Virus record (IMG/VR): IMGVR_UViG_2667527965_000003
Span: 1 to 48,868 of that record
Strand: one strand, 5' to 3'
From: a virus
Lineage: Duplodnaviria; Heunggongvirae; Uroviricota; Caudoviricetes
Length of the DNA stretch: 48,868 bases
Both the position numbers and the translations under genes were made by a program. The notes beneath the pieces were generated by a model. That model was not told where the DNA came from, did no database searches, and saw only the letters and a list, made by a program, of their open reading frames with translations. Below, one piece after another: positions 7,390 to 48,592 of this stretch (positions within the stretch are counted from its first letter, which is position 1; every line of letters begins with the position of its first letter).

Positions 7390-7528
7390 GTCAGATCCTC
7401 ATTTTTGAATGTAAGATCCCCGGGCCAGAGATAGCGCCCATTGGGTGTGTTTTTGGTTTTAAGTAGTTTTCCGGTGTAACTTTGGTCGGTGGCACCGGAC
7501 GTAGACCCCGCCTTGCGCGGGTTTTACG

Positions 7529-7693
7529 TTAGGCTTCGTGGGCCATCTGGTCGTACGAAGCGCAACGCACAGAACAGTAATCACGTTGTTCGCGCGCCAA
7601 CTGGGCTCCGCGGATGAAGAGCAATTCGTTTTTAACTTCTTTCCCTTGCTCGATAGGTTTGCGGCAGTAAGCGCATTTCTTCGAGTTACACAT
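7529..7693 (-). CDS. Small zinc-finger protein (YdaE-like)
   Basis: 54 aa from internal Met of the 72-aa ORF; CAYC...CSVRC cysteine pairs; GGGGAA RBS upstream of ATG at 7693. Confidence 0.5.
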   Translation of the reverse strand: MCNSKKCAYCRKPIEQGKEVKNELLFIRGAQLAREQRDYCSVRCASYDQMAHEA

Positions 7694-7814
7694 CAGGATT
7701 CCCCTTCTGTGCCAAGAGGTAACAGAGGCGGCGAATAAACGCCCCAAGAGAACTCAGTTTTACGGCCTGCTGCCGTACTGGCTTACGTGCGTAGTCAATC
7801 ATGGTCACCCTCAT
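7686..7814 (-). CDS. Small basic protein, first gene of leftward early operon (possible Kil-like)
   Basis: The track ORF start at 7889 lies inside the OL operator, so an internal Met (7814 or 7802) is more plausible; function guessed only from position. Confidence 0.25.
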   Translation of the reverse strand: MRVTMIDYARKPVRQQAVKLSSLGAFIRRLCYLLAQKGNPDV

Positions 7815-7879
7815 TTGCCCTTGTCGCCAGGCTGGCGGAACGTTTATCGGAGCAACGCAGCGCGTTGTTGATGGGATAA

Positions 7880-7897
7880 GTTTACTCATTACTAAAC
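7880..7897. promoter_or_regulatory. OL-type operator for the CI-like repressor
   Basis: GTTTACTCATTACTAAAC is the reverse complement of the OR site at 8446-8463 with one mismatch; additional TAAAC half-sites follow at 7914-7948. Confidence 0.55.
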
Positions 7898-7992
7898 CAT
7901 TCTGTAAAGTAAATAATAAACAAAATTGTTAAGTTCGTACTAAACGTATGAAGAAGGGGGGATATTTGCGGTCGGAGGGGATCTGTAGGCAT

Positions 7993-8015
7993 AAAAAAAA
8001 CCGCCATGGCGGCGG
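7993..8015 (-). terminator. Rho-independent terminator after the repressor gene
   Basis: On the minus strand a CCGCCATGGCGG palindrome is followed by an 8-nt T-tract, directly downstream of the repressor stop. Confidence 0.55.
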
Positions 8016-8035
8016 TTCAGTTATCAATAAATTGG

Positions 8036-8395
8036 TTACTTATTGCGGGAAGCCAGCAGTTCCTGGAAAAGCTTGTTGTACTTGTCGTGTTTAGCTTTGA
8101 ATTCCTGAAGAACAGCCTTCTTCTCCGAGTCTGGGAAAGCTCGGAAGTGCAAAAGCAGCTCAACCTCGTCAGCAAGAAGAACGGTATCATTGCTGGCCTT
8201 GTCAGGATGCTGCTCATCAGTATCGAGATAGCCCGAGGGCATACCATAGTCGCGCTCAATTCGTCTGGCAGCTCTTTCACCAAAGGAGGCCTTACCATTT
8301 ATCAATTGTGATAAATAGCTCTTCTCTTTTTCTGGTAGCGACTTATCGGCAAACCATGCCTTTAGCTGCTTCCTACGGATATCTGCTGTGCTCAT
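8036..8395 (-). CDS. CI/RacR-like repressor, HTH only, no S24 peptidase domain
   Basis: 119 aa from Met at 8395; N-terminal HTH-like segment (SYLSQLINGKASFGERAARRIERDYGMPSGYLD); divergent to Cro-like gene; too short for a LexA-like C-terminal cleavage domain. Confidence 0.65.
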   Translation of the reverse strand: MSTADIRRKQLKAWFADKSLPEKEKSYLSQLINGKASFGERAARRIERDYGMPSGYLDTDEQHPDKASNDTVLLADEVELLLHFRAFPDSEKKAVLQEFKAKHDKYNKLFQELLASRNK

Positions 8396-8406
8396 CTGCG
8401 TATTTT

Positions 8407-8463
8407 GATTAGTTAATGCTAAACAAGCAAATACTTGACTAAAAGGTTTAGTAATTAGTAAAC
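8407..8463. promoter_or_regulatory. OR operator region between repressor and cro-like gene
   Basis: Near-palindrome GTTTAGTAATTAGTAAAC (8446-8463) plus related GATTAGTTAATGCTAAAC (8407-8424); TTGACT -35-like hexamer at 8435-8440. Confidence 0.5.
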
Positions 8464-8492
8464 TCATCTCACACCTTACCTGGAGCGCATAT

Positions 8493-8753
8493 ATGCAACT
8501 CAAAGATTACTTATCCCAGCAGCGCGGAAACGCCAAATGGTTGGCTAAAAAGCTGGGCATTTCGATGCCGTATCTGTCTCAGATGGCCTCATCCACTTCC
8601 GCAATTTCGCCTGAGAGAGCCATCGAAATTGAGCGATTCACGAATGGAGTCGTTAACCGTGCCGACTGCCTGCCAGAGAAATGGATGCGAATCTGGCCGG
8701 AATACACCCCTGTGAACATGTGTCCTGTAGAGGGCGCCCAAAAGAGGACTTAA
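8493..8753 (+). CDS. Cro-like / YdaS-family HTH regulator
   Basis: 86 aa; ...AKKLGISMPYLSQMASS... resembles Rac YdaS; divergent from repressor across the operator region. Confidence 0.65.
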   Translation: MQLKDYLSQQRGNAKWLAKKLGISMPYLSQMASSTSAISPERAIEIERFTNGVVNRADCLPEKWMRIWPEYTPVNMCPVEGAQKRT

Positions 8754-8755
8754 TA

Positions 8756-9313
8756 ATGCAAACACTTTCTTTTCAACAGAATAACAGAGCGCCAGCAGAG
8801 CGGCTGACATTCCAGTTTCACCATGAAGAAATGTCGAGCCAAAAGGTTGATCACCGCGCCATCTGTTCTGCCGTTCGCGCGTGGGCGGCGGCTGAAGGCC
8901 GTGTCGCGGTCGCATTAATAATCCGGGAAGCGGTTGAAGAGGCTGGCCTGGAGGATATCGATACATCCGTTAATGCCGATGTGTGGAACGTGAAATTGTT
9001 CCGATGGTTAGACCAGCCAGAGAAATCGGCGGTTTACCGGGCGAACGTGGAGCAGCTGGCACCGGTAATCATCTCAGTTCTGCCGCTGGCGTACCGGGAT
9101 CGGGTTGTTAAGCACGATAACTTCGCGCTTCGCATCGCCAAGTCGGTGAAAGAGGATGCAGAGGCCATCCAGGCTGTCGTTCTCAAAGCTCCCAAACAGG
9201 AACGCTGGAAAGAGATCAGCGAAAGCATCGTTGCAAAGTGTCTCCTGGATGGGCCGGATTCAGTCGCGCCAATTATGGCGATGGTTACAACGATGCTAAG
9301 TGGAGCGATCTGA
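8756..9313 (+). CDS. YdaT-like (CII-position) regulatory protein
   Basis: 185 aa from ATG at 8756 with AAGAGGA RBS; segment ...FRWLDQPEKS...APVIISVLPLAYRDRV resembles Rac YdaT; immediately follows the ydaS-like gene. Confidence 0.5.
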   Translation: MQTLSFQQNNRAPAERLTFQFHHEEMSSQKVDHRAICSAVRAWAAAEGRVAVALIIREAVEEAGLEDIDTSVNADVWNVKLFRWLDQPEKSAVYRANVEQLAPVIISVLPLAYRDRVVKHDNFALRIAKSVKEDAEAIQAVVLKAPKQERWKEISESIVAKCLLDGPDSVAPIMAMVTTMLSGAI

Positions 9314-18163: not shown

Positions 18164-18183
18164 TACTGTTTATACATACAGTA
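18164..18183. promoter_or_regulatory. LexA (SOS) box
   Basis: TACTGTTTATACATACAGTA fits CTGT-N8-ACAG with AT-rich spacer (LexA consensus TACTGTATATATATACAGTA). Confidence 0.65.
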
Positions 18184-18201
18184 TTTTGTTGTATGGTTTA
18201 G

Positions 18202-18327
18202 ATGCTACAGAAAAAAATGAATTTTTCTTCCGGCGAACTTATTAGGAAATTTGCGCCATTTGTTATTTTGGCTCTGTGGAGTGGATTTCTCCCCGCCGGG
18301 AGAGCGTATTTGGTGATAGCAAAGTGA
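18202..18327 (+). CDS. Possible small hydrophobic peptide (41 aa), not in the ORF track
   Basis: ATG at 18202, stop at 18325-18327; MLQKKMNFSSGELIRKFAPFVILALWSGFLPAGRAYLVIAK; about 20 bp downstream of the LexA box; translation unproven. Confidence 0.25.
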   Translation: MLQKKMNFSSGELIRKFAPFVILALWSGFLPAGRAYLVIAK

Positions 18328-18336
18328 GGAGGGGAT

Positions 18337-18531
18337 GTGAGCATAGAGGTCGCCGAAGCGATTAAAACAGTCTCGGAGGGCGGTAAGTTCGTCATTACTT
18401 GCAATAATGGGGAAATTACCAGCCTGGAGCGCGTTAGGGACGATCAGCACGTTCTCTCGCTTGCTGAGTTACTCTACCTTCTTCGAGAAGCTGGGTTCCG
18501 CATTGACGGAGCGGATAGCCTACTGCCATAA
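18337..18531 (+). CDS. Hypothetical small protein (64 aa)
   Basis: GTG start with AGGAGG RBS at 18327-18332; downstream of the LexA box. Confidence 0.4.
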   Translation: MSIEVAEAIKTVSEGGKFVITCNNGEITSLERVRDDQHVLSLAELLYLLREAGFRIDGADSLLP

Positions 18532-18588: not shown

Positions 18589-19188
18589 ATGGCGCAGTTA
18601 CAACTCATCAAGCAGTCCTCAGGAATCCTGATCCCGGCCACGCCGGAGACCAGCGACTTTCTGCAATCAAAAATCAAGCTCGGCGCCGTGCTGGTGGCCG
18701 ACTTCAAACAGGTCCGTAACCCGGCCTTTCATCGTCGCTTCTTCGCTCTGCTGAATCTCGGCTTCGAATACTGGGAGCCAACCGGCGGCGCTATCTCATC
18801 CAACGAACGCAAGCTGGTGACCGGCTATGCGAAGTTTCTGGCATCGTTCGGCGGGAGCGAAACCGCGCTGCTGGATGCTGCTGAGCAGTATCTCGATCAG
18901 GTGGGCAGCCGCCGCATCACCAATGGCATCAGCCTGTGCAAATCCTTCGACGCCTATCGCGCATGGGTGACCATCGAATCCGGCCACTACGACACCATAC
19001 AGCTGCCTGACGGCATCCTCCGGAAGCATCCCCGCAGCATCGCCTTCGCCAATATGGACGAGACCGAGTTTCAGCAGCTCTACAAAGCCGCGCTCGATGT
19101 TCTGTGGCGCTGGATATTGTCGCGCGCATTCAGGGACCAGCGCGAGGCTGAGAACGCCGCCGCGCAGTTGATGAGCTTCGGAGGCTGA
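18589..19188 (+). CDS. DUF1367-like nin-region protein
   Basis: 199 aa; resembles a family commonly found in lambdoid nin regions (from memory). Confidence 0.5.
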   Translation: MAQLQLIKQSSGILIPATPETSDFLQSKIKLGAVLVADFKQVRNPAFHRRFFALLNLGFEYWEPTGGAISSNERKLVTGYAKFLASFGGSETALLDAAEQYLDQVGSRRITNGISLCKSFDAYRAWVTIESGHYDTIQLPDGILRKHPRSIAFANMDETEFQQLYKAALDVLWRWILSRAFRDQREAENAAAQLMSFGG

Positions 19189-47013: not shown

Positions 47014-47033
47014 TACTGTATATATAAACAGTA
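47014..47033. promoter_or_regulatory. LexA (SOS) box overlapping a promoter
   Basis: TACTGTATATATAAACAGTA, one mismatch from consensus; TTGATC -35-like hexamer 17 bp upstream; ATG of next gene 19 bp downstream. Confidence 0.7.
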
Positions 47034-47051: not shown

Positions 47052-47291
47052 ATGCCACGCAGAATCGATATTGAGGGTGCTTTTCACACAGCCATTAAAC
47101 ACGAGTCCAACGGGCGCCGTACGGTGACTACTGAGGACTTCGTGAAGCACCTGGCCCGCGCTAACTGGAACTGGTCGCTTAAAGAGGCGAACGACTGGAT
47201 CGAGAGCCACGTTTCTACCTTTAAGGATGTTTCGACCTGTGAGGGCCAGGCGCGCACCTTCATGCTCTACAACCCGAACGGAGGCCTGTGA
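47052..47291 (+). CDS. DinI-like small protein, SOS-regulated (tentative)
   Basis: 79 aa; AAGGAGGGG RBS; directly downstream of LexA box; N-terminus MPRRIDIEG and ANDWIESH segment loosely resemble DinI (MRIEVTI... / ADDWFVSE). Confidence 0.4.
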   Translation: MPRRIDIEGAFHTAIKHESNGRRTVTTEDFVKHLARANWNWSLKEANDWIESHVSTFKDVSTCEGQARTFMLYNPNGGL

Positions 47292-47292
47292 C

Positions 47293-47610
47293 ATGGGCTT
47301 TCCATCTCCAGCTGCTGATTACGTTTCTCAGCGAATGACCCCGGAGCTCATTTGCGGCGTCAGTATTGATACCCGCATTCTTGAAACATCATCCGGTTTC
47401 GCATTAATCGAACCGGTTACCCGGTTAGTGCAAGGTCAGGTTCTGCTGATTTTGTCCGGCGGCAGGACGCAGTTTGTGAAACTCAGGGGCAGGGCATTAA
47501 TCACTGATGATGGTGAAGCGATCGAGGGGGAGGCGGCGGAGGAAGTTGAGGTTCTGGGGCGAGTGACGTTCTTCATCAACAGTGCGCTGCAGGATGACAG
47601 AATTGTGTGA
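47293..47610 (+). CDS. UmuD'-like (S24-fold) protein starting at the UmuD cleavage-product N-terminus
   Basis: 105 aa; begins MGFPSPAADYVSQR, matching the UmuD' N-terminus GFPSPAADYVEQR; C-terminal region (GQVLLILSGGRTQFVKLRGRALI) aligns loosely with UmuD; no umuC-like gene adjacent. Confidence 0.5.
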   Translation: MGFPSPAADYVSQRMTPELICGVSIDTRILETSSGFALIEPVTRLVQGQVLLILSGGRTQFVKLRGRALITDDGEAIEGEAAEEVEVLGRVTFFINSALQDDRIV

Positions 47611-47932: not shown

Positions 47933-48592
47933 TTGATGAAACAGCCTGCGCCCGTTTATCAGAGAATTGCGGGTCATCAATGGCGACATATCTGGCTTTC
48001 TGGCGATATACACGGTTGTCTTGAGCAGTTGCGCCGCAAATTATGGCATTGTCGTTTTGATCCGTGGCGAGATTTACTTATCTCAGTGGGAGACGTTATC
48101 GATCGTGGGCCGCAAAGTTTACGTTGTCTGCAGTTACTGGAACAACATTGGGTTCGTGCGGTAAGAGGCAATCATGAACAGATGGCGATGGATGCGCTGG
48201 CATCCCAGCAGATGTCTTTATGGTTGATGAATGGCGGCGACTGTTTTATTGCGCTGGCAGATAATCAACAGAAACAAGCGAAAACGGCGCTGGGGAAATG
48301 TCAGCATTTGCCCTTTATTCTTGAAGTACACAGTCGCACCGGCAAGCATGTTATTGCTCATGCCGATTATCCAGATGATGTTTATGAATGGCAAAAGGAC
48401 GTCGATTTGCATCAGGTCTTGTGGAGCCGCTCGCGATTAAGTGAACGCCAAAAAGTGCAGGGAATTACAGGTGCTGATCATTTCTGGTTTGGTCATACAC
48501 CGTTGCGACATCGCGTGGATATTGGCAACCTGCATTATATTGATACCGGTGCTGTCTTTGGGGGCGAACTGACTCTTGTGCAATTGCAATAA
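47933..48592 (+). CDS. pphA: Serine/threonine protein phosphatase 1 (host gene)
   Basis: 219 aa with metallophosphatase motifs (GDIHGC, GDVIDRG, GNHE); recognised as E. coli-type PphA. Confidence 0.8.
   Translation: MMKQPAPVYQRIAGHQWRHIWLSGDIHGCLEQLRRKLWHCRFDPWRDLLISVGDVIDRGPQSLRCLQLLEQHWVRAVRGNHEQMAMDALASQQMSLWLMNGGDCFIALADNQQKQAKTALGKCQHLPFILEVHSRTGKHVIAHADYPDDVYEWQKDVDLHQVLWSRSRLSERQKVQGITGADHFWFGHTPLRHRVDIGNLHYIDTGAVFGGELTLVQLQ

Follow-up and report, generated by a model that had tools for sequence, protein, structure and literature searches.

Here we describe the immunity region of the prophage in IMG/VR record IMGVR_UViG_2667527965_000003 (Caudoviricetes), analysed over positions 1 to 48,868 of that record, a stretch of 48,868 nucleotides (nt) that we call the window. 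At positions 7,880 to 8,492 this prophage carries a gene for a repressor of 119 amino acids (aa) flanked by matching operator-like sites, and ~10 kb from the repressor it encodes a candidate antirepressor of 64 aa behind a LexA box. We consider it probable that these form one switch, in which a short, non-cleavable repressor is released by the LexA-controlled 64-aa protein. The first-pass annotation of the region had argued that such a repressor should need an antirepressor for induction, and this interpretation is supported by the sequence features, homologies, conservation and co-variation reported below; for the window locus itself we infer that the 64-aa protein binds the repressor, that the contact is made through the repressor C-terminus, and that SOS-dependent induction proceeds without cleavage.

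In the mechanism that we propose, the helix-turn-helix (HTH) domain of the repressor would bind 18-bp palindromes with the half-site GTTTAGTAA, with OR1 blocking promoter PR and OL1 to OL3 blocking promoter PL, and repression would silence the cro- and cII-like genes, the replication genes and the recE side. A weaker second OR site in the spacer of the repressor promoter PRM would provide autoregulation, and YdaS, the Cro analogue, is presumably a competitor for these operators. Since the repressor has no S24 domain, DNA damage would be unable to act on it directly. Cleavage of LexA would derepress the promoter at the box at 18164-18183, the 64-aa product of 18337-18531 would be made, and this protein would bind the repressor, most likely at the DicA-like helical domain of the repressor C-terminus, and take it off the operators.

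The repressor and its operators

Along the repressor, a PaaR2-like HTH domain (residues ~1-58) is followed by a disordered linker (~58-72), and this by a DicA-like helical domain at the C-terminus (~73-117). It had been described at first as a protein of ~119 aa, HTH only, with no room for an S24 autocleavage domain. The length and the missing peptidase were borne out by a profile search, in which HTH_3 was the only Pfam match, and a weak one (E 0.14), with no hit to Peptidase_S24 (PF00717), and there is no GDSM motif in the repressor sequence. The description as HTH only has to be withdrawn, as a helical hairpin akin to the DicA C-terminus occupies residues 73-117: in NCBIfam, residues 61-119 align with DicA residues 73-131 (E 2.7e-11), and alignment with DicA and the Gifsy-2 repressor GtgR reveals a C-terminal motif common to all. 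An AlphaFold2 model built with 35 homologues (mean predicted local distance difference test score 78) is all-helical, with helices at residues 3-14, 25-32, 40-49, 75-85 and 89-117, disorder at ~58-72 and a hairpin at 75-117, and contains no beta-rich peptidase fold. The clearest evidence for placing the repressor in the non-cleaving class, an assignment made from sequence comparison, is the set of domain-swap relatives described below, in which the same N-terminal domain and operators occur with either S24 or short C-termini.

These properties also bear on the idea that proteolysis inactivates the repressor, be it through a cryptic site cleaved under RecA stimulation or through degradation by a host protease (Lon or ClpXP) under stress. 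We regard this as extremely unlikely: the disordered linker of ~15 residues (58-72) could be accessible to a protease, and the N-terminal domain is common to genuine S24-bearing repressors, but an S24 domain, a GDSM-type serine motif and a beta-rich C-terminal fold are all absent, PaaR2 is likewise without a peptidase motif, and the Gifsy repressors, of the same class, are not cleaved and are instead inactivated by small antirepressors (PMC3121763).

The closest characterised relative of the repressor is PaaR2, the CI analogue of the cryptic prophage CP-933P/Sp12 of E. coli O157:H7 (Jurenas et al. 2021, PMC8630535). PaaR2 is a full-length homologue (BLASTP, 47% identity over 118 aa, E 2e-39), and the solved structures of its N-terminal domain (7NKV, 8C3K, 8C3L) were recovered by phmmer (7NKV, E 2e-23) and by Foldseek (8C3K, TM-score 0.94 normalised to the target, 70% identity). 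The intergenic region of the window (8396-8492) is 97 bp long and aligns without gaps to the 97 bp of CP-933P, the PR core CTAAACAAGCAAATACTTGACT is identical in both, and the YdaS proteins are 53% identical. It is from experiments on this homologue that operator binding, the leaderless start and the regulation of PL through OL sites are known: in CP-933P the PR and PRM starts were mapped by rapid amplification of 5' cDNA ends, leaderless translation of paaR2 was established by N-terminal sequencing, the intergenic region was analysed by electrophoretic mobility shift assays and DNase I footprints, the operators were defined as 18-bp palindromes with the half-site consensus GTTTAGTAA, and a PL with OL1-3 was found to be repressed by PaaR2 and by YdaS (PMC8630535). 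PaaR2 had earlier been found to octamerise in solution (PMC8630535).

Reading of the sequence confirmed that the two 18-mers originally taken as OL and OR (7880-7897 and 8446-8463) differ by a single base when placed in the same orientation. They were the sole matches when the 48.9 kb were searched with up to three mismatches allowed, and 100 dinucleotide-preserving shuffles of the window yielded 0 matches. A simple sigma-70 scan of 7600-8700 found two promoter-like sites only, PL and PR, and each contains one of the 18-mers, OL1 and OR1 occupying the spacer and -10 of PL and PR respectively. As the half-site in OL1 and OR1 is the footprinted GTTTAGTAA consensus, the putative operators of the window belong to an experimentally defined operator family, and with their overlap of PL and PR and their conservation in relatives the proposed role as OL and OR flanking the repressor is supported. 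The operators number more than these two, with further operator-like sites at 8407-8424, 7904-7921 and 7928-7945. The first of these is kept as GTTTA-n4-T-n-ACTAATC in 22 of 22 aligned loci, and in many relatives its counterpart lies at the same position with three mismatches or fewer to OR1; the pattern GTTTA-n7-aCTTTAC of OL2 is kept in an alignment of 13 loci.

The promoter scan backs PR and not PRM, which is supported by conserved geometry: its geometry and sequence are kept in 22 diverse upstream regions, in the order OR1, PR -35, TTGCTT, second operator, CAAAAT and, 6-7 nt on, ATG. The repressor start has no Shine-Dalgarno sequence, and a PRM -10 placed 6 nt before the ATG implies a repressor mRNA that is probably leaderless. 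Two Xenorhabdus/Photorhabdus loci carry a ~50-nt insertion here that brings in GGAG; together with the conserved order, this supports both a leaderless PRM transcript and an autoregulatory operator.

Users of automated annotation should be aware of a recurrent error at this locus. Upstream, the repressor reading frame remains open as far as 8503, and automated gene calls often give a protein of 143 aa that starts 24 codons early, at an ATG inside OR1 (for example L001 4222-4653 and proteins P0001-P0007 in our set of relatives). We rejected this longer form (143 or 155 aa), as single-base indels break the frame of the extension in distant relatives, and the 143-aa form is also contradicted by the start of PaaR2 at the equivalent Met, determined by N-terminal sequencing (PMC8630535). 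In Gifsy-3, an N-terminally extended form, GfhR*, appears after induction (Lemire et al., PMC3121763), and on that precedent a minor long form of the window repressor may possibly exist.

The candidate antirepressor and the two LexA boxes

The first-pass annotation had offered two LexA boxes as the context for induction. We find the box at 18166 plausibly tied to induction of this prophage and the box at 47014-47033 not. The former stands ahead of a small gene of the Rem family in the position of gftA, which fits the proposed need for an antirepressor. In the Gifsy phages the antirepressor operon is LexA-controlled, consists of dinI, a small gene with a GUG start and irsA, and lies downstream of the replication genes (PMC3121763). 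In the window, the DUF1367 gene is 86% identical to STM1020 of Gifsy-2, the gene just downstream of gftA, and the 64-aa gene, with a GTG start as in gftA, lies between the LexA box and this irsA homologue, that is, in the gftA slot. The 64-aa protein belongs to PHROG 340, as does Rem of E. coli (E 1.6e-20), at a pairwise identity of 22%. Antirepression, by Rem and GfoA/GftA, and LexA control are again known from experiments on homologues; Rem derepresses the DicA-controlled dicBp 165-fold (PMC10448788). No match was found for the 64-aa protein when solved structures were searched by sequence.

The second, near-consensus box precedes a 79-aa open reading frame (ORF) and an ORF for a UmuD'-like protein, with no further prophage gene ahead of the host pphA-like gene. 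It is very unlikely that the cognate antirepressor is the 79-aa product (47052-47291), possibly acting with the UmuD'-like protein (47293-47610). The quality of the box TACTGTATATATAAACAGTA, the strong ribosome-binding site and the small size of a protein of unknown function would suit such a role, and one group of relatives, with repressors of type B (see below), co-transcribes a UmuD'-like gene with a putative antirepressor. Nevertheless, the 79-aa protein has no similarity to Rem, to GftA or to the 74-aa family of the type-B relatives, and the same gene pair adjoins attP in mEp390 and other lambdoid phages; the mEp390 repressor is annotated as a LexA-family (S24) regulator. The occurrence of the pair with a repressor of that kind means that the module is not tied to the repressor type of the window, and the genes behind the second box are best read as an SOS-controlled accessory module and not as the cognate antirepressor.

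Exchange of the repressor C-terminus among relatives

At the nucleotide level, a megablast search with 7500-9300 recovered fragments from collections of phage and E. coli sequences plus one E. coli locus at 86% identity, which served as a lead only; searches at the protein level were needed. We assembled ~100 related loci from genome and viral contig collections. Nearly all of them carry 18-mers with three mismatches or fewer to OR1 at the same relative positions, ~68 bp and ~29 bp upstream of the repressor start and 100-700 bp beyond its stop (more in a few), and such operator-like sites extend to Klebsiella, Raoultella, Xenorhabdus, Photorhabdus, Morganella, Yersinia and others. The N-terminal domains of these repressors, 71-81% identical over residues 1-58 and associated with the same operators, are joined to various C-termini: that of the window (type A, 116-121 aa in total), a different short C-terminus (type B, 128-131 aa), a Photorhabdus/Xenorhabdus variant (121-124 aa, with one shortened copy of 107 aa), other short tails (143-161 aa) and a full S24 peptidase domain with GDSM and PF00717 (199-222 aa; loci L019, L022, L024, L074 and L099 and proteins P0066 and P0075).

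Hidden Markov models (HMMs) of the two small-protein families were searched over all related loci. The Rem-like family is present at 31 of 43 type-A loci, 30 of these with a LexA box, and the other family at none of the 43; a distinct 74-aa family is present at 22 of 25 type-B loci, usually behind a UmuD'-like gene, and the Rem-like family at none of the 25; and neither family was found at any of the nine S24 loci. This clean partition by type, together with the pairing of Rem with DicA, which has another DNA-binding domain and the same C-terminal type, suggests that the C-terminal domain determines antirepressor specificity. Whether domain swapping has joined a single DNA-binding domain, with its operator set, to three or more induction devices (an S24 peptidase; a DicA-like C-terminus with a LexA-controlled Rem-family antirepressor; and a second short C-terminus with a 74-aa protein and a UmuD'-like gene) is a proposition that we hold to be evenly balanced.

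In the type-B relatives (L071-L097), whose repressor has 131 aa, the LexA-controlled operon lies ~4.5-6.5 kb away on the cro side and consists of the UmuD'-like gene, in the place of dinI in the Gifsy phages, followed by the gene for the 74-aa protein (MKLNEFA...DGEITDYLV). DinI and UmuD' both bind RecA filaments. Direct homology of the 64-aa family to the 74-aa family is marginal.

A number of observations weigh against a LexA-controlled antirepressor in the window. Direct comparison of the 64-aa family with GftA by hhalign was weak (E 0.003, probability 10%), so that Rem and PHROG 340, with gene position, provide the connection to proven antirepressors. The promoter scan found no consensus-grade promoter at either LexA box; the best manual reading at the first (TTTATA-17-TATGGT, 18170-18198) matches at 8 of 12 positions, below the threshold, and is conserved but weak. 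The dinI gene, which heads the operon in the Gifsy phages and in many relatives, is absent from the window, although it is dispensable for Gifsy induction (Lemire et al., PMC3121763). The related loci share ancestry, so that the co-variation counts are not independent events, and of the 12 type-A loci with no small-protein match, at least 9 have a short flank or a LexA box ~220 nt or less from the flank edge. Finally, the 24 kb around the CP-933P switch contain no LexA box and no obvious Rem-like gene, the latter as judged by eye with no HMM search, and since CP-933P is also reported to be unresponsive to mitomycin C, a PaaR2-type switch can exist without SOS coupling.

The last point leads to the alternative that the window switch is real but not SOS-wired, and that competition between repressor and YdaS makes it flip, stochastically or by growth phase, as described for CP-933P, which is bistable (PMC8630535); the LexA-controlled 64-aa gene would then have another role, for instance a RecA- or recombination-related one beside the DUF1367/NinB-like gene. 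Like CP-933P, 18 Xenorhabdus/Photorhabdus relatives (L007-L016, L064-L070, L098) show no LexA box and no match to either small-protein family within 10 kb. We nevertheless judge this alternative unlikely. It does not account for the perfect partition of small-protein type with repressor C-terminal type and the absence of both families from S24 relatives, nor for the gftA slot of the 64-aa gene, and the family of that gene includes Rem, which has been demonstrated to act as antirepressor on a repressor whose C-terminus is of the same kind. Furthermore, CP-933P is decayed and contains pseudogenes, and loss of the antirepressor module there is plausible. Release of the repressor by a LexA-controlled 64-aa antirepressor is the reading that we prefer.

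The place held by dinI in relatives, where dinI and then a gene of the same small-protein family come after the LexA box, is taken in the window by a conserved, non-coding-looking leader of ~155 nt (18184-18336) that holds a GC-rich hairpin at 18287-18304. A hydrophobic 41-aa ORF in the leader (18202-18327) was considered as an SOS-induced substitute for dinI and rejected. In L028 and L031, both close relatives, the DNA is conserved but the frame of this ORF is broken, which implies that conservation of the leader is probably at the RNA or DNA level.

Prophage setting, known systems and significance

The window contains a ~47-kb prophage, flanked by yebY and the small RNA pair RyeA/RyeB on one side and by a pphA-like phosphatase gene (47933-48592) on the other. 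Its genes follow the order int-recT-recE...repressor, then cro-cII-O-P-nin-Q, with the repressor gene divergent from the YdaS/Cro and YdaT/CII-like genes and the replication genes to the right of the repressor, after the YdaT/CII-like gene. On the left (PL) side are a small ORF (7686-7805), ydaE and a RecE of 1090 aa, all of which PL would drive. The locus is the predicted immunity (lysis/lysogeny) switch of an apparently complete lambdoid (Rac/Gifsy-like) prophage. The gene order stands against the notion that the region is a toxin-antitoxin-like module (RacR/YdaS/YdaT) and not an immunity switch, which recalls the Pfam names YdaS_toxin and YdaT_toxin and two mSphere papers from 2017 that called YdaS and YdaT toxins; it is hardly credible, as experimental work on the CP-933P homologues concluded that YdaS and YdaT are analogues of Cro and CII and do not form a toxin-antitoxin pair (PMC8630535). 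The coordinates of the switch, the antirepressor operon and the second LexA-box module are given in Table 1.

Table 1. Features of the immunity switch and of the two LexA-box modules in the window
Feature	Position	Strand	Remarks
OL1	7880..7897	.	18-bp imperfect palindrome GTTTACTCATTACTAAAC; minus-strand reading GTTTAGTAATGAGTAAAC; conserved downstream of repressor gene in relatives
PL promoter	7879..7908	-	-35 TTTACA, 18-nt spacer, -10 TAAACT; conserved in alignment
OL2	7904..7921	.	Weaker operator-like site, 4 mismatches; overlaps PL -35; 24 bp from OL1
OL3	7928..7945	.	Operator-like, 5 mismatches; 24 bp past OL2; conserved in closer relatives only
Intrinsic terminator	7998..8018	-	9-bp stem then T run, directly after repressor stop
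Repressor, 119 aa	8036..8395	-	ATG 8395, stop 8036; exact protein called in three NCBI assemblies
Putative PRM promoter	8402..8430	-	-35 TTGCTT (8425-8430), 17-nt spacer, -10 CAAAAT (8402-8407), 6 nt before ATG
Second OR operator (predicted)	8407..8424	.	5 mismatches; in PRM spacer, beside repressor start; minus strand GTTTAGCATTAACTAATC
PR promoter	8435..8464	+	-35 TTGACT, 18-nt spacer, -10 TAAACT
OR1	8446..8463	.	GTTTAGTAATTAGTAAAC; in PR spacer and -10
Cro analogue, YdaS family, 86 aa	8493..8753	+	Pfam YdaS_toxin E 4.8e-10, HTH_3 E 2e-5
CII analogue, YdaT family, 185 aa	8756..9313	+	Pfam YdaT_toxin E 2.2e-15; PHROG 163 CII-like activator E 1e-36
LexA box	18164..18183	.	TACTGTTTATACATACAGTA; equivalent box 4.5-9.8 kb on cro side in most enterobacterial short-repressor relatives
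Candidate antirepressor, 64 aa	18337..18531	+	GTG start after GAGGAGGGG, strong ribosome-binding site; PHROG 340 E 1.5e-13
DUF1367/irsA homologue	18589-19188		Downstream of 64-aa gene
Second LexA box	47014-47033		TACTGTATATATAAACAGTA, near-consensus; precedes 79-aa ORF
79-aa ORF	47052-47291		PHROG 3893, unknown function; strong ribosome-binding site
UmuD'-like ORF, 105 aa	47293-47610		Starts MGFPSPAADY; no detectable S24 domain

Several further observations concern the surroundings of the switch. The convergent small RNA pair SraC/RyeA and SdsR/RyeB (463-607), the sole Rfam match reported, adjoins the integrase gene (681-1766), and the prophage appears to be inserted at the ryeA/ryeB locus; no Rfam family was matched in the immunity region or in the LexA leader. 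The YdaT binding motif TTGATT-N6-AATCAA has no site in the immunity region, and its count is no better than chance. A GC hairpin with a T run is present at the position of the repressor terminator in most aligned enterobacterial relatives. The PL leader at 7838-7873 (minus strand, CATCAACAACGCGCTGCGTTGCTCCGATAAACGTTC), with the hairpin CAACGC-GCT-GCGTTG, is near-invariant in relatives, even in those with diverged repressors, and resembles the equivalent region of Gifsy-2; it has no Rfam match and could be a nut-like or other RNA element. The NCBI assemblies with an identical 119-aa repressor (L106-L108) carry the same repressor and cro genes with replication modules that differ and with varying cargo on the PL side, namely a 97-aa ORF, DUF1482 or RecE joined on directly, which shows the immunity cassette apparently moving as a unit.

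The system as such is not new but of the PaaR2, DicA and Gifsy type (PMC8630535, PMC3121763, PMC10448788). It shares with CP-933P the operator half-site GTTTAGTAA, the -10-to-ATG geometry, a PL with OL sites downstream of the repressor gene and a repressor without a peptidase motif; PaaR2 itself is described as not reactive to mitomycin C (PMC8630535). It differs in that the paaA2-parE2 toxin-antitoxin genes of CP-933P have no counterpart: the window repressor is followed directly by a terminator, with no ORF between 8036 and OL, which marks it as a PaaR2-like repressor and not as part of a three-gene paaR2-paaA2-parE2 operon or PaaR-PaaA-ParE module. Whereas CP-933P is cryptic and decayed, with pseudogenes, the window prophage looks complete and carries a LexA-controlled Rem-family gene of a kind not seen near the CP-933P switch.

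The likeness to Gifsy-1, -2 and -3, with repressors GfoR, GtgR and GfhR and LexA-controlled antirepressors GfoA, GftA and GfhA (Lemire, Figueroa-Bossi and Bossi 2011, PMC3121763), comprises a short repressor that has no cleavage domain and whose C-terminal motif is similar, a LexA box in the nin region and, directly ahead of an irsA homologue, a small gene with a GTG start, as well as a left arm of the RecE/RecT type. In contrast, the DNA-binding domain and operators are different, dinI is missing from the operon head, and the small protein of the window belongs to PHROG 340 whereas GftA belongs to PHROG 4847, with marginal direct similarity. DicA and Rem of the cryptic prophage Qin of E. coli K-12 (Ragunathan et al. 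2023, PMC10448788) match the window in the repressor C-terminal domain and in the PHROG family of the small protein. DicA differs in its P22 C2-like HTH domain and its operators, and Rem in its length (82-83 aa, with an insertion); the available part of that report cites no LexA control of rem.

With repressors of the lambda CI, P22 C2 and LexA type the window shares genome position, divergent PRM and PR, OL and OR sites overlapping promoters and a leaderless repressor mRNA (predicted for the window), but not the S24 peptidase or its catalytic motif, the C-terminus being a helical hairpin of ~45 residues. Tum of coliphage 186, AntC of N15 and the Rep-Ant pair of Salmonella SPC32H (PDB 5D50) are comparable in that a LexA-controlled antirepressor inactivates a non-cleavable repressor (summarised in PMC3121763). 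They differ in repressor fold and oligomeric state and in their much larger antirepressors, and no sequence relationship was detected; the Rep-Ant complex was a weak structural match (E 0.18).

Non-cleavable lambdoid repressors governed by LexA-controlled antirepressors have been known since 2011 from the Gifsy phages, and the PaaR2 family of repressors and operators was dissected in CP-933P in 2021. What is modestly new is that the PaaR2 family, for which no induction route had been described, is linked to an antirepressor family of the Rem type in an apparently intact prophage, and that the relatives supply a natural series of cleavable and antirepressor-dependent C-termini on one and the same operator-binding domain, so that the part recognised by the antirepressor becomes directly testable. 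If the domain-swap reading is true, the short C-terminal domain would be the antirepressor receptor, phages whose immunity specificities coincide or overlap would differ in the manner and the reversibility of their response to DNA damage, and the missing induction route for PaaR2-type repressors would be supplied. The locus also bears on predicting which prophages SOS-inducing antibiotics will affect, and on cross-induction among prophages resident in the same host.

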